4,902 nucleotides of DNA from a virus. Its lineage: Duplodnaviria; Heunggongvirae; Uroviricota; Caudoviricetes. The stretch lies in IMG/VR virus record IMGVR_UViG_2740892234_000005; one strand, 5' to 3'. Below the pieces are notes generated by a model that saw nothing but the letters and a program-made list of their open reading frames with translations, had not been told where the DNA came from and made no database searches. A program made the position numbers and the translations under genes. The first letter of the stretch is position 1, and every line of letters starts with the position of its first letter. This document shows, piece after piece, positions 1 through 4,902 of the stretch.

Positions 1-467
1 AATGTACCGTGAAAGCGACATCGTACCGGGAGAGCAGACCGCCACCATCATACTGAAGCAGCGCACAAAAAAATCTTGCGCCGCTGCCTCACGCCCACCA
101 GCAAAACCCGCCACAGGAAAAGACGGTGGTCAGCATTGCCGTTGATCCGGAGTCACCGGCTCAGTATCTCCAGCGCCAGAAACCACAACGGGAAGAGATG
201 CCTGTATACACGCGCTGGGTAAAAACGCAGAAATGCATGACGTGCGGTAATCAGGCAGATGATCCGCATCACATCATTGGTCATGGACTGGGAGGGATGG
301 GAACAAAGGCTGATGATTTGTTTGTTATTCCGCTGTGCCGTAAATGTCATAACGAACTGCACGCCGGGGTAAAAGATTTTGAAGAAAAACACGGCAGCCA
401 GCTGTTGTTGCTGATTCGTTTTTTAATGCACGCGAGAAATTCGGGTGTCCTGAAGTGGAAAGCATGA
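1..467 (+). pseudogene. DUF968-family protein with C-terminal HNH / Endo VII-like zinc-finger nuclease motif; 3' part of a gene that begins upstream of the window; broken by a +1 frameshift (or a homopolymer sequencing error)
   Basis: Frame 2 is open from the window edge (..MYRESDIVPGEQTATIILKQRTK) and matches copy 2 (from 2266) codon for codon up to an A7 run at 67-73, which is A6 in copy 2. After that, frame 2 hits TGA at 143-145, while the homologous reading (..NLAPLPHAHQQNPPQEKTVVSIAVDPESP..) continues in frame 3, open 57-467 (track ORF 126..467 from GTG). C-terminal motifs C-x2-C, DDPHH and LCRKCHNELH are shared with copy 2. Confidence 0.55.
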
Positions 468-833
468 ATGACTGAACGGATAGAATTTGTTTTGCCTTAC
501 CCGCCGACGGTGAATACCTACTGGCGACGTCATGGCAATACGTATTTCATCTCGGAAGCCGGAAAGCGTTATCGCCGTGATGTGGCGCTAATTGTTCGCC
601 AGCAGCGGCTGAAATTAAACCTGTCCGGAAGGCTGGTGATAAAGATTATTGCAGAGCCACCGGATAAGCGCCGTCGTGACCTGGACAATATCCTGAAAGC
701 ACCACTGGATGTGCTGACGCATGCCGGACTTCTCATAGACGACGAGCAGTTTGATGAAATCAATATTGTGCGCGGTCAGCTCGTTCCTGGTGGGCGGCTG
801 GGGATAAAAATCACAGAACTGGAGTGCGCATGA
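468..833 (+). CDS. rusA: RusA-family Holliday junction resolvase (crossover junction endodeoxyribonuclease), copy 1
   Basis: ATG 468 directly abuts the upstream TGA (465-467). The 121-aa product carries RusA hallmarks as I recall them from E. coli RusA: PPTVNTYW-like N-terminus, [10 protein letters not shown] acidic catalytic block, LIDDEQF, and GGRLG near the C-terminus. About 88% aa identity to the second copy at 2737-3108. Confidence 0.9.
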   Translation: MTERIEFVLPYPPTVNTYWRRHGNTYFISEAGKRYRRDVALIVRQQRLKLNLSGRLVIKIIAEPPDKRRRDLDNILKAPLDVLTHAGLLIDDEQFDEINIVRGQLVPGGRLGIKITELECA

Positions 834-1498
834 ATAACCACTATTTACAGTTTGTGCGTGAGCAGCTCATTATCGCCACCGCTGATTTGAGTGGGGCAAC
901 AAAAGGTCAGCTTGAAGCCTGGCAGGAGAATGCCATGTTCGATACAGGGCGTTACAGGCGAAAAAAAATCCGGTACCGCGATGAAGTGACTGGAAAAATG
1001 ATAACGCGGGATAATCCACCAATCCCGGGAAAGCAATCGCTGGCGAAGGTGACGTCAATTCCTCTGGTCAGTCCGGTTGAGTTTTCGACATCATCGTGGC
1101 GGCGGGCTGTTCTGTCTCTTGAAGAACATCATAAAGCCTGGTTGTTGTGGTGTTACAGCGGGAGTATTTGTTGGGAATATCAGATCGCGATAACACAGTG
1201 GGCGTGGAATGAATTTAATACTCAATCCGGTACCAGAAAAATTGCTGGGAAAACGCAGGAACGCCTGAAAAAATTAATCTGGCTGGCGGCGCAGGCAGTA
1301 AAAGCAGAACTTTTTGGTGGGGAAGGTTATGAATACCAGGAGCTGGCATTACTGGCGGGAGTGACAACCAAAAACTGGTCCAAAACATTTACTGGCCACT
1401 GGGTTGCAATGAAACACATTTTTCACCGGCTGGATAATGAGGCTTTATTGTTCGTGACGAGAACACGTTTAAAACAAAAGGCGGCATTTTCACAGTAA
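830..1498 (+). CDS. Late-gene antitermination protein Q (long, roughly 222-aa type)
   Basis: ATG 830 overlaps the rusA stop (ATGA at 830-833) with GGAG 5 nt upstream; GTG 824 is the alternative start used by the ORF track. The gene sits in the slot that lambdoid phages reserve for Q, immediately upstream of a sigma70 promoter plus intrinsic terminator. Family assignment is from position and recollection, not a search. Confidence 0.7.
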   Translation: MNNHYLQFVREQLIIATADLSGATKGQLEAWQENAMFDTGRYRRKKIRYRDEVTGKMITRDNPPIPGKQSLAKVTSIPLVSPVEFSTSSWRRAVLSLEEHHKAWLLWCYSGSICWEYQIAITQWAWNEFNTQSGTRKIAGKTQERLKKLIWLAAQAVKAELFGGEGYEYQELALLAGVTTKNWSKTFTGHWVAMKHIFHRLDNEALLFVTRTRLKQKAAFSQ

Positions 1499-1502
1499 AG
1501 TA

Positions 1503-1531
1503 TTGCAAAAGTAGATTAAAAGGCATATATT
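1503..1531 (+). promoter_or_regulatory. Candidate sigma70 late promoter (pR'-like): -35 TTGCAA (1503-1508), 17-bp spacer, -10 TATATT (1526-1531)
   Basis: Good match to TTGACA-N17-TATAAT, starting 5 nt after the Q stop codon. A -10-like repeat GATATT (1544-1549) lies in the predicted initial transcribed region, as expected for a sigma70-dependent promoter-proximal pause where Q loads. Confidence 0.45.
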
Positions 1532-1580
1532 TCATGCAAATCTGATATTTTGCCGATTTTGTACGTGATGGCAAAGTAGC

Positions 1581-1606
1581 AAAACCCGCCGCTGAGCGGG
1601 TTTTTC
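1581..1606 (+). terminator. Rho-independent terminator (tR'-like) ending a short promoter-proximal transcript
   Basis: Stem CCCGC (1585-1589) pairs with GCGGG (1596-1600) around loop CGCTGA; it is extendable by AAAA/TTTT and followed by T-run 1601-1605. It lies about 45-70 nt downstream of the candidate promoter. Confidence 0.75.
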
Positions 1607-1788
1607 TGTACCCGGAATTCTGTGGCTATCCAGAAAGCTCATGGAAAGAGGAGAAAGGCAATAATTTATAACAAAATCTTAAAGATCGCCTTGTATACTA
1701 TTAGTTTTGTAAATATTGTGTATTTTGAGTATTGCAGGATAACCCTGTGACGAAGTTAGTGTAACAACACTTTTGCTCTACGAGTTTC

Positions 1789-1817
1789 GCCAGCCTCCCC
1801 CAGTGGCTGGCTTTTTT
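1789..1817 (+). terminator. Rho-independent terminator in the non-coding region downstream of tR'
   Basis: 7-bp stem GCCAGCC (1789-1795) pairs with GGCTGGC (1805-1811) around a 9-nt loop, followed by TTTTTT (1812-1817). No ORF of meaningful size lies upstream in 1607-1788. Confidence 0.6.
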
Positions 1818-1836
1818 ATGTCCGTAGCGTCAAAGC

Positions 1837-1846
1837 NNNNNNNNNN
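1837..1846. other. Assembly gap (10 N), scaffold join
   Basis: Run of exactly 10 N. The frame of the downstream DUF968 gene is open right up to the gap, so the gene's 5' end is missing. Confidence 0.95.
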
Positions 1847-1860
1847 TGGAAGACAAAACA

Positions 1861-2724
1861 TTGCTGCCGTTTTTCAGTAACGCACGGGTGATTCGTGCTG
1901 CTGGTGGTGCTGGTGCATTGTCTGACTGGCTGTTGCGCCATATTAAATCCTGCCAGTGGCCACACGGCGATTATCATCACAGCGAAACTGTCATTCACCG
2001 TTATGGTACCGGCGCAATGGTGTTGTGCTGGCACTGCGACAACCAGCTGCGTGACCAGACATCCGAATCACTCGAGCAACTTGCTCATCAAAACCTGTCA
2101 GCATGGATGATTGACGTCATCGGTCACGCAATAAGCGGTACGCAGGAGCGTGAATTATCTCTGGCTGAATTATCCTGGTGGGCGGTCCGCAATCAGGTGG
2201 CGGACGCGCAACCGGAAGCGGTATTACGTCGTTCGCTGGGGGGGCGTGCGGAAAAAATCCGCTCAATGTACCGTGAAAGCGACATCGTGCCGGGAGAGCA
2301 GACCGCCACCAGCATACTGAAGCAGCGCACAAAAAATATTGCGCTACCGCCTCACACCCACCAGCAACAGAACCCACCACAGGAAAAGACGGTGGTCAGC
2401 ATTGCCGTTGATCCGGAGTCTCCGGAATCCTTCATGAAACGACCTAAACGTCGCCGCTGGGTAAATGAGAAATACACACGCTGGGTAAAGACACAGCCGT
2501 GTGCGTGTTGTGGTAAGCCAGCGGACGATCCTCATCATCTGATTAGTCATGGTCAGGGCGGAATGGGAATAAAATCCCACGATATTTTCACGCTACCGCT
2601 GTGTCGGGAGCATCACAACGAGCTTCATGCGGATCCGCTGGCGTTCGAAGAAAAGCATGGTTCCCAGGTTGATTTAATTTTTCGTTTTCTTGATCACGCT
2701 TTTGCAACCGGCGTGCTCGGGTAA
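1861..2724 (+). CDS. DUF968-family protein with C-terminal HNH / Endo VII-like zinc-finger nuclease motif, copy 2 (5'-partial; true start probably in or before the gap)
   Basis: Long open frame running from the gap edge (1847) to TAA 2722-2724; the first in-window candidate start is TTG 1861. The N-terminal region has a Cys/His cluster (C-x4-H..HH..C-x2-C). The C-terminus has C-A-C-C, DDPHH, and LCREHHNELH. A Chi octamer lies inside at 1900-1907. Confidence 0.7.
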   Translation: MLPFFSNARVIRAAGGAGALSDWLLRHIKSCQWPHGDYHHSETVIHRYGTGAMVLCWHCDNQLRDQTSESLEQLAHQNLSAWMIDVIGHAISGTQERELSLAELSWWAVRNQVADAQPEAVLRRSLGGRAEKIRSMYRESDIVPGEQTATSILKQRTKNIALPPHTHQQQNPPQEKTVVSIAVDPESPESFMKRPKRRRWVNEKYTRWVKTQPCACCGKPADDPHHLISHGQGGMGIKSHDIFTLPLCREHHNELHADPLAFEEKHGSQVDLIFRFLDHAFATGVLG

Positions 2725-3108
2725 AAGAGGTTACTGATGCGTATAGAGTTTGTTTTGCCTTACCCGCCGACGGTGAACACCTACTGGCGACGTCGTGGCA
2801 GCACATATTTTGTATCAAAAGCCGGTGAGCGTTATCGCCGGGCTGTGGCGCTTATTGTTCGCCAGCAGCGGCTGAAATTAAGCCTGTCCGGACGGCTGGC
2901 AATAAAAATTATTGCAGAACCACCGGATAAGCGCCGCCGTGACCTGGACAACATTCTGAAAGCACCGCTGGATGCGCTGACGCATGCGGAAGTGCTCATT
3001 GATGACGAGCAGTTTGATGAAATCAATATTGTGCGCGGTCAGCCTGTGCCAGGTGGACGGCTGGGCGTGAAGATTTACGAAATCAGAGGTGGTAACGATG
3101 GCGCGTGA
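2265..3108 (+). repeat. Paralogous segment B (DUF968 3' part + rusA); partner is 1-833
   Basis: See segment A. Copy B carries an intact reading frame through the A6 run at 2331-2336. Confidence 0.85.
2737..3108 (+). CDS. rusA: RusA-family Holliday junction resolvase, copy 2
   Basis: RBS AAGAGG (2726-2731) precedes ATG 2737. The 123-aa product has the same PPTVNTYW / [10 protein letters not shown] / LIDDEQF / GGRLG motifs; its C-terminal tail diverges from copy 1. Confidence 0.9.
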
Positions 3109-3469
3109 TATCCAGATGGTTCTTGAGCGATGGGGGGCATGGGCAGCAAATAATCATGAAGATGTAACATGGCCCTCGATAGCTGCTGGTTTTAAAGGAT
3201 TAATCCCGACTAAAGTGAAATCACGTCCTCAGTGTTCTGATGATGACGCCATGATAATTTGTGGTTGTATGGCACGATTAAACAAGAATAATCAGTATTT
3301 GCACGATTTGTTGGTGGATTATTACGTAGGTGGAATGACATTTATGGCTCTTGCACGTAAGCATAGATGTTCTGATGGGCTTATTGGTAAAAGGCTTTAT
3401 AAAGCGGAAGGTATTATTGAAGGAATGCTTATGGCTCTGAATGTCCGGTTAGATATGGATATGCGGTAG
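3098..3469 (+). CDS. quuD: Short antitermination protein Q (DLP12 QuuD-like)
   Basis: ATG 3098 with GAGGTGG 5 nt upstream; the 5' end overlaps the rusA stop (3106-3108). The 123-aa product ([32 protein letters not shown]..) matches my recollection of the roughly 127-aa QuuD from prophage DLP12. Not verified by search. Confidence 0.7.
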
Positions 3470-3561
3470 GGATATATAGTGATGAGGGTTATGTTTTCTG
3501 TGTTTATAATTAACATGTTTATTTTTTTGATGGTCATGTATTGTGGAAGGTAGATAAAATG

Positions 3562-3590
3562 TTGCCTGGTGAATTGAAAATATTGATAAT
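3562..3590 (+). promoter_or_regulatory. Candidate sigma70 promoter for the cargo gene: -35 TTGCCT (3562-3567), 17-bp spacer, -10 GATAAT (3585-3590)
   Basis: Found in the very AT-rich 3470-3615 spacer. An alternative perfect -10 TATAAT at 3505-3510 lacks a good -35. AT-rich DNA produces such matches by chance, so this is weak. Confidence 0.3.
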
Positions 3591-3621
3591 CAATCTTCAT
3601 CATTAAATAAAAGGAGTGCTT

Positions 3622-4440
3622 ATGTGGATTGTGTTAGTACTGTCACTGTCAACTCTCAGTTGGCATAAGGTAGTGGCTTTTTCATTGTTGACGGTGTCTG
3701 TTGTCCTGGCTGTGCTTAATGATATTATTGATTGGTCGGTGTTATTTTTTGTTGCTACAATCGTTTTTTTTATTATTTTGAAGTTCAACTGGAAATATAA
3801 CGCCTGGGCTAAATCTATATATGAAGTTGGCATAGTTTTATCAGCCATAGCATTATCTTTCCATCTATGGCCAGGGTTTCACAATCCTGTAGTGCTAAAT
3901 TCTGTTACTGTTGGCCCTCAAAGTACTCCCTATACAATGTATTTTAATTTTGATAAAGCGCTGGTGCCATTTTTGTTAGTCCTGTGTACATCTTCTTTGT
4001 TTAAAAAAGAAGTAAAATCAGAAGTGTCTTTGTGGAAGTGGGGGGCTCTGTCGCTCTCTGTTCCTCTTATCCTGTTTTTGGCTGTTTTTTTTGGTGGATT
4101 AAAGCCAGAGATTCATTTTCCTGAGTGGTTGCCAGAGTTTATATTGGCTAATTTGTTTTTTGTGTCTCTGGCAGAGGAATCATTATTTAGAGGGTATATT
4201 CAATCACGGCTATCAGAAGTAACGTCTCCATTGGTTGCATTAATTGTGGCGGCTTTGTTGTTTGGTTTTTATCACTATTCAGGTGGTGCTTTACTTGTAT
4301 TATTTGCCACGTTATCTGGTGTTGTGTATGGATTGTCATGGATGTGGAGTGGGCGTTTGTGGGTTGCCACCCTTTTCCATTTTGGTTTGAATCTGTGTCA
4401 CTTGTTATTCTTTACCTATCCATTTTTAAAACATAATTGA
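3622..4440 (+). CDS. CPBP (CAAX protease / bacteriocin-processing, Abi, PF02517-like) family polytopic intramembrane metalloprotease; prophage cargo (moron) gene
   Basis: RBS AAGGAG (3611-3616) precedes ATG 3622; the track starts at GTG 3616. The 272-aa product has roughly 8-10 hydrophobic helices. The three CPBP signature motifs sit in consecutive C-terminal helices in the canonical order: EExxxR (AEESLFRGY, nt 4174-4191), FxxxH (FGFYHY, nt 4261-4275), HxxxN (HFGLN, nt 4378-4392). The gene is AT-rich with T-rich codons, unlike the flanking phage genes. Confidence 0.8.
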   Translation: MWIVLVLSLSTLSWHKVVAFSLLTVSVVLAVLNDIIDWSVLFFVATIVFFIILKFNWKYNAWAKSIYEVGIVLSAIALSFHLWPGFHNPVVLNSVTVGPQSTPYTMYFNFDKALVPFLLVLCTSSLFKKEVKSEVSLWKWGALSLSVPLILFLAVFFGGLKPEIHFPEWLPEFILANLFFVSLAEESLFRGYIQSRLSEVTSPLVALIVAALLFGFYHYSGGALLVLFATLSGVVYGLSWMWSGRLWVATLFHFGLNLCHLLFFTYPFLKHN

Positions 4441-4578
4441 TTTTTTCTATGGTTTTAAATTTATAAGACTGAAAAATAGCAGGACGTGACATTTGCATGA
4501 AAAATATGCACGGCAAAGCATTTACGTACGTAAAAAATCAGGTATGCTGTTAAGAGTGGTTATTTCGCCGCATAGCTT

Positions 4579-4604
4579 GACCCCGCCTCTGAGCGGGTTT
4601 TTTG
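4579..4604 (+). terminator. Rho-independent terminator (tR'-like, paralogous to 1581-1606)
   Basis: Stem CCCGC (4582-4586) pairs with GCGGG (4593-4597) around loop CTCTGA, followed by TTTTTT (4598-4603). It shares the core CCCGC-CKCTGA-GCGGG-TTTTT and a nearby GCAAAGTAGC word with the copy 1 terminator. Confidence 0.7.
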
Positions 4605-4681
4605 TGCCCGCAAAGTAGCGCAGTGCGTTAAATGTGCTGGTAGTTATTAATACAGGTCTTTCAGCTTGCTGGCTTTTTCGG

Positions 4682-4709
4682 CAAGAGTTATTGGTGTGTC
4701 ACGTTAACC
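4682..4709 (+). repeat. 28-bp direct repeat, left copy (CAAGAGTTATTGGTGTGTCACGTTAACC)
   Basis: Identical 28-mer recurs at 4758-4785 on the other side of the N gap. Confidence 0.9.
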
Positions 4710-4744
4710 AAAAGGGAAAAAAGACATGCTAAAACAGCAGGATA

Positions 4745-4754
4745 NNNNNNNNNN
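4745..4754. other. Assembly gap (10 N), scaffold join
   Basis: Run of exactly 10 N, flanked by a 28-bp direct repeat. It truncates a gene that starts at ATG 4726 (MLKQQD..). Confidence 0.95.
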
Positions 4755-4757
4755 CGA

Positions 4758-4785
4758 CAAGAGTTATTGGTGTGTCACGTTAACC
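4758..4785 (+). repeat. 28-bp direct repeat, right copy
   Basis: Identical to 4682-4709. The downstream sequences are both purine-rich but diverge. Confidence 0.9.
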
Positions 4786-4902
4786 GGAAAAAGGAAAGTT
4801 TGAGAAACGCGATCTGGCACAGGCGGTTATTAATGCTGCCTACCTGGTGGCCTGTGCAGATGGTGAATGTGAGGCTTCCTAGAAAGCGAAGATCGAACAG
4901 GT

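Follow-up and report, generated by a model that had tools for sequence, protein, structure and literature searches.

Record CCQE01000134.1 raises the question of whether two late-control switches of lambdoid prophages, each with its own antiterminator Q, lie in tandem in one Escherichia coli prophage. The window analysed here is the whole of this 4902-bp record. A preliminary description of the sequence offered two explanations for the double switch: late-regulatory regions of two lambdoid prophages joined by scaffolding over N gaps, or a genuine tandem or chimeric prophage.

Structure of the Record

The record is a scaffold of three contigs separated by two runs of N.

1–1836 (+): contig A
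1837–1846 (unstranded): 10-N scaffold gap, contig A to contig B
1847–4744 (+): contig B
4679–4709 (+): post-terminator motif CGGCAAGAGTTATTGGTGTGTCACGTTAACC; contig C opens with a second copy
4745–4754 (unstranded): 10-N scaffold gap, contig B to contig C
4755–4902 (+): contig C, beginning with the second motif copy (4755–4785) and continuing in the interior of a TerB-family pseudogene

A reading in which each N run hides 10 real bases of an unbroken sequence was rejected, as their flanks are colinear in no reference. In the references, the end of contig A runs into a methyltransferase remnant and tRNAs. Contig B starts within a DUF968 gene; all references have this gene intact, with its 5′ part ahead of the point where contig B begins. 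The end of contig B continues there into a 65-aa ORF and not into contig C. The sequences that begin contigs A and C are also found inside contig B, so both look like branches of an assembly-graph fork. Contig C opens with the motif already present in contig B, which extends 30 nt past it, as the references do. In contig C, a CGGAAA microhomology marks the fusion of the motif copy to the TerB-family pseudogene interior, which has an in-frame TAG at 4880–4882. Searching the literature for the prefix CCQE01 turned up nothing on the assembler used.

Gene Content of the Two Modules

Contig A carries the first module (copy 1).

1–467 (+): DUF968/HNH-like gene, 3′ part (Pfam DUF968, E 1.6e-47; HNHc_6, E 3e-8)
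67–73 (+): A7 run causing a +1 frameshift in DUF968 (A6 in aligned homologues)
468–833 (+): RusA-family Holliday-junction resolvase, 121 aa (Pfam PF05866, E 5.6e-15)
830–1498 (+): Q antiterminator, 222 aa, Q82 family (Pfam PF06323, E 4.6e-90)
1503–1531 (+): candidate late promoter PR′ (promoter scan: TTGCAA, 17-nt spacer, TATATT)
1581–1605 (+): intrinsic terminator, tR′-like (fold: stem CCCGC/GCGGG, A-tract before, T5 after)
1789–1817 (+): second hairpin in the contig A tail (GCCAGCC..GGCTGGC TTTTTT; fold −14.7 kcal/mol, z −3.1)

The second module (copy 2) occupies contig B.

1847–2724 (+): DUF968/HNH-like gene (Pfam DUF968, E 1.3e-73)
2737–3108 (+): RusA-family resolvase, 123 aa (Pfam PF05866, E 1.1e-15)
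3098–3469 (+): Q antiterminator, 123 aa, Q21 family, QuuD-like (Pfam PF06530, E 4.5e-52)
3622–4440 (+): CPBP/Rce1-like intramembrane protease family gene, 272 aa (Pfam PF02517, E 1.4e-19)
4521–4548 (+): candidate late promoter PR′ (block conserved in 15 distinct Q21-type loci that differ in cargo)
4582–4603 (+): intrinsic terminator, tR′-like (stem CCCGC/GCGGG, then T6)

In copy 1, DUF968 is reduced to its last ~155 codons; the gene is cut at the contig start and split by the frameshift between frame 2 (until 145) and frame 3 (57–467). The A7 run also occurs in locus L010, an N-free contig of another strain, and in 2013C-3264, a complete genome whose annotation marks the gene as frameshifted. 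In copy 2, the contig edge cuts off the first ~57 codons; the references have an intact 349-aa gene. Despite the domain matches, neither copy holds a complete DUF968/HNHc_6 gene (PF06147, PF16784) in an intact frame. Both RusA translations match the family profile and retain DKRRRDLDN and the downstream DDE, residues whose roles we take to be those of the acidic motif in E. coli RusA. In copy 1, the RusA stop overlaps the Q start (ATGA).

The copy 1 Q aligned with PF06323 at 301.6 bits (cutoff 25) over profile positions 2–216 of 220 and is a full-length member of the Q82 family, named here after PMC9388147. A PDB sequence search with this 222-aa protein found no Q82-family structure; its match to the Listeria phage endolysin 1xov (E 5e-4) was weak and treated as spurious. 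The gene is followed, as in Q82-type layouts, by a candidate PR′ 5 nt past its stop and then by the intrinsic terminator. Judging by its sequence and position, the element at 1503–1531 presumably acts as the late promoter. The copy 1 hairpin escaped the consensus terminator scan but was confirmed by direct folding; 46-nt stretches around the two terminators folded at −15.6 and −15.7 kcal/mol. Downstream of the contig A equivalent, L010 has tRNAs, and holin and lysozyme genes lie further on in the related prophages L001 and L007.

The copy 2 Q covers positions 2–118 of the 118 in PF06530, which places it in the Q21 family, and it matches the Q21 structures 6P18 and 6JNX distantly (E 7e-8, residues 9–90). 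E. coli K-12 QuuD is presumably another member (PF06530). The CPBP gene is AT-rich (GC 34–39%) and is cargo in a slot between Q and PR′ whose content differs among relatives. Within the assembly collection, >10,000 blocks hold exactly this CPBP protein.

The promoter scan also reported promoter-like sites at 3531–3603, which more probably represent a promoter belonging to the cargo gene. A PR′ directly after Q, with CPBP between PR′ and tR′, was considered and rejected, since the cargo-independent conserved block begins only at 4521, just upstream of the terminator. This block comprises a −35-like TTTACG, a 16-nt spacer and a −10-like TATGCT (4543–4548); together with the terminator (4521–4603) it is conserved across diverse Q21-type loci. 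The −35-like element lies within a conserved 14-nt palindrome, TTTACGTACGTAAA (4521–4534). These elements were placed by cross-locus comparison, the published PR′21/QBE sequence being given only in figures, and the late-promoter function of 4521–4548 is likewise inferred. A sub-threshold Rfam match in the window to a snoRNA (23.9 bits; gathering score 35) was dismissed as chance.

Patchwork Similarity Between the Copies

Self-alignment of the window, Pfam matches and RNA folds confirmed two same-orientation DUF968-RusA-Q-terminator copies with mosaic identity. Contig A 1–802 aligned with contig B 2265–3065 at 77.6% over 812 columns (E 1e-174), and contig A 1585–1617, the terminator, with contig B 4582–4613 at 88%. 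Within the longer alignment, nucleotide identity was 91% over contig A 1–160, 57% over the HNH part (161–467) and 87% over the RusA region (468–802), close to the ~60% and ~88% first estimated for the last two. Beyond 803, similarity is gone. The DUF968 proteins share 62% identity and the RusA proteins 87%, while the 222-aa and 123-aa Q proteins have no similarity to each other and, as first described, are unrelated, falling into two Pfam families (PF06323 and PF06530).

Some points of the preliminary description needed adjustment. DUF968 is incomplete in both copies, as set out above. In copy 2, the CPBP gene and the late promoter stand between Q and the terminator, so the four parts of that module do not directly adjoin. 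The near-identical DUF968 stretch exists (91%), but it sits in the middle, or linker, of the gene and not at the 3′ end.

The steps in identity (91%, 57%, 87%, none) fall sharply on domain and gene boundaries, and the contig A body, the contig A tail and the contig B stem each have different best references. Abrupt changes at boundaries, with blocks whose closest relatives lie in different prophages, are the signature of lambdoid module exchange, as had been proposed; to judge from these alignments, the patchwork is ordinary, well-known lambdoid mosaicism. The suggestion that the two Q genes imply different late-promoter specificities is consistent with their assignment to the Q82 and Q21 families and with the unrelated promoter-proximal sequence upstream of the shared terminator.

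Placement in Reference Genomes

Contig A is identical at 1836 of 1836 positions to L010 (7172–9007). There it belongs to an ordinary prophage, with cI, cro, replication genes, paa, hok and the 5′ part of DUF968 ahead of it; behind it come the methyltransferase remnant and three tRNAs, not DUF968. The contig A tail (1613–1836) matches the RM12579 prophage L001 and the loci L010 and L100. A further match of this tail, in the Q21-type locus L040, lies downstream of that locus's terminator and not upstream of DUF968.

L005 and L007 show exact colinearity with contig B 1847–2264 followed by contig A, at a 418-nt offset. The first 24 nt of contig A equal contig B 2265–2288 (window coordinates), and mismatches begin at position 25 of contig A. 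Just upstream of the match to these 24 nt, L010 and contig B share ~107 + 45 nt of exact identity. Window positions 1847–2288 are a shared stem that forks into a branch A and a branch B. The first ~160 nt of contig B are closer to A-type references (98.6% to L005) than to B-type ones, so in the source genome the stem may belong to a prophage of either type.

Is the Adjacency Real?

No place covering at least 80% of the window was found in 5426 complete E. coli genomes, and the exact junction pattern of contigs A and B occurred in none of 185,579 species-representative genomes. Across 80 Q82-type and 80 Q21-type viral loci, neither a Q of the opposite type nor a DUF968 gene following Q was seen (0 of 160). 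Uninterrupted sequence joining cassette 1 to cassette 2 was found neither in the record, where only N runs connect them, nor in the complete genomes, species representatives or viral contigs. In the complete genomes RM12579, CFSAN004176 and 2013C-3264, close relatives of both modules are present ~360–690 kb apart. The evidence, though indirect, speaks strongly against a real adjacency, and the placement of the copies next to each other almost certainly arose in assembly. We therefore read the window, with a probability of about 0.88, as a draft scaffold joining the late-switch regions of different E. coli lambdoid prophages, two or three in number, in which the mosaicism is real and the adjacency is not. 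This agrees with the first of the two explanations offered initially, though with at least three late-regulatory regions in place of two; it is supported by the L010 context, the colinearity of the stem and the genome and viral searches.

Some observations sit less easily with an artefact. In an assembly graph, a real tandem of the form [stem-A][stem-B] would break into contigs at the same points, and the scaffolder set A ahead of B in the same orientation, which is not obvious from simple stem-to-A pair links. Both points, together with the minimal gap between A and B, would suit a locus in which illegitimate or homologous recombination placed a second DUF968-RusA-Q cassette ~240 bp past the first terminator, so that one prophage held two Q switches in tandem. 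Tandem lambdoid prophages are known, with 89-kb records annotated as carrying a PPompW prophage and an Stx2a-converting phage; however, the Q regions of known tandem prophages are separated by tens of kb instead of 0.3 kb. The junction would also truncate DUF968 at codon ~58, it is missing from all the collections searched, and contig A continues into tRNAs in another strain in which it is 100% identical. Moreover, the B-to-C join of the same scaffold is demonstrably redundant and non-contiguous. We consider such a locus very improbable, and the genuine tandem or chimeric prophage of the preliminary description is not supported. There is correspondingly little chance that the source strain has a Q82-type cassette with its own PR′ and tR′ and then, within ~250 bp, a 5′-truncated DUF968, RusA and a Q21-type cassette.

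The N runs might also be mere spacers from reference-guided or arbitrary joining of small repeat contigs, with order and orientation lacking physical meaning. Gaps of exactly 10 N in both places, the mapping of all three pieces to one region of a reference prophage, and a record of just 4.9 kb made wholly of prophage repeat fragments are in keeping with this. Sorting on reference start coordinates would, however, place B ahead of A. We regard this origin of the gaps as possible though rather unlikely, and it is a variant of the scaffold artefact, not a true competitor.

Proposed Origin of the Scaffold

Under the scaffold-artefact reading, the three contigs would derive from nin-to-late-operon junctions of different lambdoid prophages in one short-read draft E. 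coli genome. Each long contig would represent a standard cassette of a DUF968/HNH-like gene, RusA, Q, a constitutive PR′ and an intrinsic terminator. Loading of Q and read-through of the terminator are established for Q families. Here, each Q would be expected to load on RNA polymerase paused just past its own PR′ and to carry it through the terminator into lysis and morphogenesis genes. In copy 1, a Q82-family Q would be followed directly by its PR′; in copy 2, a Q21-family Q would be followed by the CPBP cargo, its own PR′ and a homologous terminator. Modular recombination among co-resident or ancestral lambdoid phages could have produced the patchwork, its breakpoints falling at the edges of domains and genes.

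The DUF968 genes of these prophages probably share a long near-exact stretch (window 2006–2288), and because it was common to them the assembler may have collapsed it into contig B. Branch A would then have been left beginning 24 nt ahead of the first distinguishing base, and contig C would be a further alternative branch past the post-terminator motif. The branches of the repeat graph would finally have been strung together with minimal 10-N gaps.

The record serves mainly as a caution: a short scaffold pieced together from prophage repeats can pass for a tandem or chimeric element, and a join over an N gap in a record of this type is not to be taken as physical linkage. The underlying biology is already known: modules are swapped between co-resident lambdoid prophages where genes meet, and one and the same slot is filled by non-homologous Q families. 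Were the adjacency true, two non-homologous Q switches with different promoter specificities would stand in series on one late-control region, an unusual arrangement in nature.

Comparison with Known Systems

Contig A most resembles the PPompW-type STEC prophage (LC567822.1, Enterobacteria phage PPompW_132418) and the paa prophages of CFSAN004176 and 2013C-3264, with 98.1–98.4% identity over contig A 1–1604/1612 and the same ydfU(DUF968)-rusA-Q order. The 2013C-3264 prophage shares the A7 frameshift of contig A. In contrast, these prophages run directly into tRNAs in place of the contig A tail (1613–1836). Contig B corresponds over its full length, in the same gene order and at 97.5–98.5% identity, to the DUF968-RusA-Q-CPBP module of O55:H7, O121 and O145 prophages (e.g., NC_017656.1, 2429752–2432650), but its first ~160 nt are nearer to A-type DUF968 alleles. 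Among deposited phage genomes, no contig B-type module was found beyond 42% coverage.

With Q82-family antiterminators (PF06323; phage 82 Q), copy 1 shares the full-length Pfam match, the position after rusA and the promoter and terminator immediately downstream; its Q has no sequence match to any solved structure. Copy 2 shares with phage 21 Q (PF06530; PDB 6P18/6JNX) the full-length Pfam match, the structure match and the genomic position, but its Q has 123 aa against 162 aa in Q21, to which it is only a distant match, and its PR′ is set apart from Q by a variable cargo slot of 0.5–1.7 kb. For the Q21 binding element, two 8-bp subsites in direct repeat have been reported (10.1101/651190), whereas the candidate promoter of copy 2 has a 14-nt palindrome.

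Scaffold structure

By exact protein sequence match, the window was identified as the entire record CCQE01000134.1 (4902 bp; NCBI assembly GCA_000752595.1). It is therefore a small three-contig scaffold of a draft genome and not a piece of a long contig. Its parts are as follows.

1-1836, segment A, with copy 1 of the cassette
1837-1846, run of exactly 10 N
1847-4744, segment B, with copy 2 of the cassette
4745-4754, run of exactly 10 N
4755-4902, segment C

Gaps that are negative or shorter than 10 bp are written as 10 N by some short-read assemblers, a convention that would fit the overlapping branches in this scaffold.

Comparison of the two cassettes

Segment A 1-802 aligned with segment B 2265-3065 (812 columns, 77.6% identity, E = 1e-174); the terminator stretches (A 1585-1617, B 4582-4613) aligned at 88%. 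In global alignment, the copies agreed at 91% over A 1-160. Identity fell to 57% across the HNH part (A 161-467), rose to 87% in RusA (A 468-802) and was lost beyond A 803. The DUF968 proteins were 62% and the RusA proteins 87% identical; protein comparison revealed no relatedness between the Q proteins of 222 and 123 aa. Pfam assigned DUF968 with HNHc_6, and RusA, to both copies, the 222-aa Q to PF06323 (E = 4.6e-90), the 123-aa Q to PF06530 (E = 4.5e-52) and ORF 3622-4440 to PF02517 (Rce1-like/CPBP). In PMC9388147, PF06323 corresponds to the Q82 family and PF06530 to the Q21 family, without obvious sequence similarity between the families. The 123-aa Q also matched 6P18 and 6JNX, solved structures of Q21 (E = 7e-8). 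RusA retains the DKRRRDLDN and DDE acidic motifs in both copies.

Alignments and Pfam agree with the figures and gene calls of the preliminary description, which were essentially correct. The DUF968 stretch it called nearly identical is 91% identical and maps to the middle of the gene rather than its 3' end. DUF968, RusA, Q and terminator all occur twice, as its four-part module implies, but Q and the terminator of copy 2 are separated by a cargo gene and the late promoter. Of DUF968, copy 1 retains only the 3' part, frameshifted, and copy 2 is missing about 57 codons at the contig edge.

The frameshift (+1) arises from an A7 run at 67-73, which is A6 in three homologous sequences. A homopolymer read error was ruled out by the same A7 in the complete genome 2013C-3264, where the gene is annotated as frameshifted, and in L010, a contig of another assembly; the A7 form is a shared natural pseudogene allele.

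Late-control regions and cargo slot

Segments A and B probably each span a lambdoid prophage's late-control switch together with the distal part of its nin region. RusA, from knowledge of its family, would resolve Holliday junctions, while Q, made from the delayed-early transcript, would load on RNA polymerase paused soon after initiation at PR'. Q-loaded polymerase resists the terminator that otherwise ends the short transcript from the constitutive late promoter PR' (10.1101/651190; PMC9388147). The following elements were located.

1503-1531, predicted PR' of copy 1, a good sigma-70 promoter (TTGCAA, 17-nt spacer, TATATT) beginning 5 nt past the Q stop
1581-1605, terminator of copy 1, hairpin and T-run (fold)
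1789-1817, strong second hairpin with T6 in the tail of segment A (fold)
3470-4520, variable cargo slot between the Q21-type Q and its late promoter
3531-3603, promoter-like sites of the CPBP gene's own
near 3575-3592, adjacent direct repeat ATTGAAAAT/ATTGATAAT
3622-4440, CPBP/Rce1-like membrane protease family gene (PF02517)
4521-4548, predicted PR' of copy 2: -35-like TTTACG (4521-4526), 16-nt spacer, -10-like TATGCT (4543-4548)
after the -10, about 35 conserved transcribed bases, a hairpin (4582-4597) and a T-run

A transcript from PR' of copy 1 would stop at 1581-1605, at a length of about 70 nt. For copy 2, the promoter scan gave none near the terminator. Across 15 distinct Q21-type loci, the Q gene and the block from 4521 are conserved and the 0.5-1.7 kb between them varies, which places the CPBP gene in a cargo ("moron") slot between Q and PR'. 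The gene is AT-rich (34-39% GC versus 50-57% in DUF968/RusA), and in relatives the slot is filled by different sequence, 0.5-1.7 kb long. More than 10,000 blocks of the assembly collection contain the exact CPBP protein, yet no deposited phage genome has the Q-CPBP module.

The cassettes have only the terminator hairpin in common here. No relationship is seen between their promoter-proximal regions; this is what different Q specificities would predict, in line with the different late-promoter specificities proposed previously. A 14-nt perfect palindrome, TTTACGTACGTAAA, overlaps the -35-like hexamer of the Q21-type PR' (within 4521-4548) and is conserved at aligned positions in 15 distinct loci (L041-L097); the variant TTTACGATCGTAAA is still palindromic, and the centre is GTAC or GATC. 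It could be a site for a dimeric protein, possibly the loading site of this Q subfamily. The Q21 binding element (QBE) was reported as a direct repeat (10.1101/651190), whereas the copy 2 PR' block has a palindrome, so the loading site of this subfamily may differ.

Adjacency of segments A and B

The side-by-side position of segments A and B is almost certainly not real. Scaffolding, one of two readings offered by the preliminary description, best accounts for the sole unusual trait of the window, the presence of two cassettes within 5 kb; six lines of evidence oppose the other, a tandem or chimeric prophage. Segment A recurs without a mismatch (1836/1836) at 7172-9007 of L010, a contig of 11.6 kb free of N in assembly GCA_019572835.1, and lies there within an ordinary lambdoid prophage, preceded by cI-like, cro, YdaT, DnaT-like, P, DUF1627, paa, hok, Rem and the DUF968 5' part. 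Directly 3' of its last base begins a DNA-methyltransferase remnant, not DUF968, and three tRNA genes come next. Segment B starts 172 nt into a DUF968 gene; in every uninterrupted relative this gene is intact, encodes 349 aa and has a 92-aa ORF and hok upstream.

The contig ends point the same way. B(1847-2264) and then A(1-...) line up exactly, in this order, with prophages resembling segment A (A-type references); the offset is 418 nt in L005 and in L007. This part of B is 98.6% identical to L005 and 96.4% to L007 versus 92-94% to B-type references. L010 and B share 107 identical nt, then differ at 2 nt, then share 45 identical nt. A[1-24] equals B[2265-2288], contig A beginning 24 nt ahead of the first distinguishing base. 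Such overlap and colinearity are what a collapsed repeat stem forking into A and B branches looks like. A true tandem of stem-A followed by stem-B would yield the same contig ends, which leaves a genuine chimera, with both cassettes adjoining in the source strain, a slim chance.

The scaffolding explanation also draws on the second join. Segment C begins with a 31-36-nt motif already present in B at 4679-4709; B runs 30 nt beyond it, exactly as in the references, into a 65-aa ORF, and C passes into the interior of a TerB-family pseudogene (about codon 17), joined across CGGAAA microhomology. A plain end-to-end join of B and C is therefore impossible, and C is an alternative branch, probably from a third prophage. 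Its TerB fragment has an in-frame TAG (4880-4882), as in the pseudogenes of CFSAN004176 and 2013C-3264.

Among 5,426 complete E. coli genomes, no place covered at least 80% of the window, and the exact A-B junction pattern, with a gap of 0-30 nt allowed, had no match in 185,579 species-representative genomes. The viral-contig survey (80 Q82-type and 80 Q21-type loci, 2.5-kb flanks) revealed no locus with the other Q type, with the CPBP gene beside a Q82 type, or with DUF968 downstream of Q. The one match to the tail of A in a Q21-type locus sits 3' of that locus's own terminator. Where one complete genome holds close relatives of both modules, they lie in different prophages each time, about 690 kb (RM12579), 390 kb (CFSAN004176) and 360 kb (2013C-3264) apart, on opposite strands in RM12579 and CFSAN004176.

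Four deposited records of about 89-94 kb (LC567818.1, LC567820.1, LC567824.1 and LC567834.1) carry annotations for a PPompW prophage as well as an Stx2a-converting phage and look like genuine tandem lambdoid prophages. Judging from the lengths of the records and prophages, tens of kb would separate their Q regions.

Mosaicism and known relatives

The first ~160 nt of segment B (1847-2005) are nearer to A-type DUF968 5' regions (L005 97-100%, L007 85-100%; B-type 77-95%); either the B-type prophage of the source is mosaic there, or contig B is chimeric. The next ~236 nt (2006-2241) are identical in both prophage types and are a candidate crossover stretch for a chimeric contig B. The motif-to-TerB junction of segment C would correspond to a deletion of about 1.5 kb (65-aa ORF, HTH gene, tRNAs) relative to O121-type prophages. 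The tail of segment A (1613-1836) behaves as a separate post-terminator module: it follows Q82-type cassettes at 100% identity in L010, L100, L112 and L113, follows a Q21-type cassette at 82% similarity in L040 (4165-4324), and is absent from L007 and L008, otherwise the closest relatives.

Identity between the copies shifts abruptly at the DUF968 linker/HNH boundary, the RusA start and the RusA end, and each block has a different closest relative. Such abrupt steps with block-wise relatives are the textbook lambdoid phage pattern, which bears out the module exchange put forward in the preliminary description. All parts belong to known families and known prophage modules, present in thousands of E. 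coli genomes, and are already known; the HNH allele of A occurs in 1,760 of the 5,426 genomes. The paa prophage of CFSAN004176 and 2013C-3264, like PPompW phages, matches segment A 1-1612 at 98.1-98.4% identity, whereas the tail of A matches RM12579, L010 and L100. For segment B, the relatives are prophages of O55:H7, O121 and O145 strains, at 97.5-98.5% identity.
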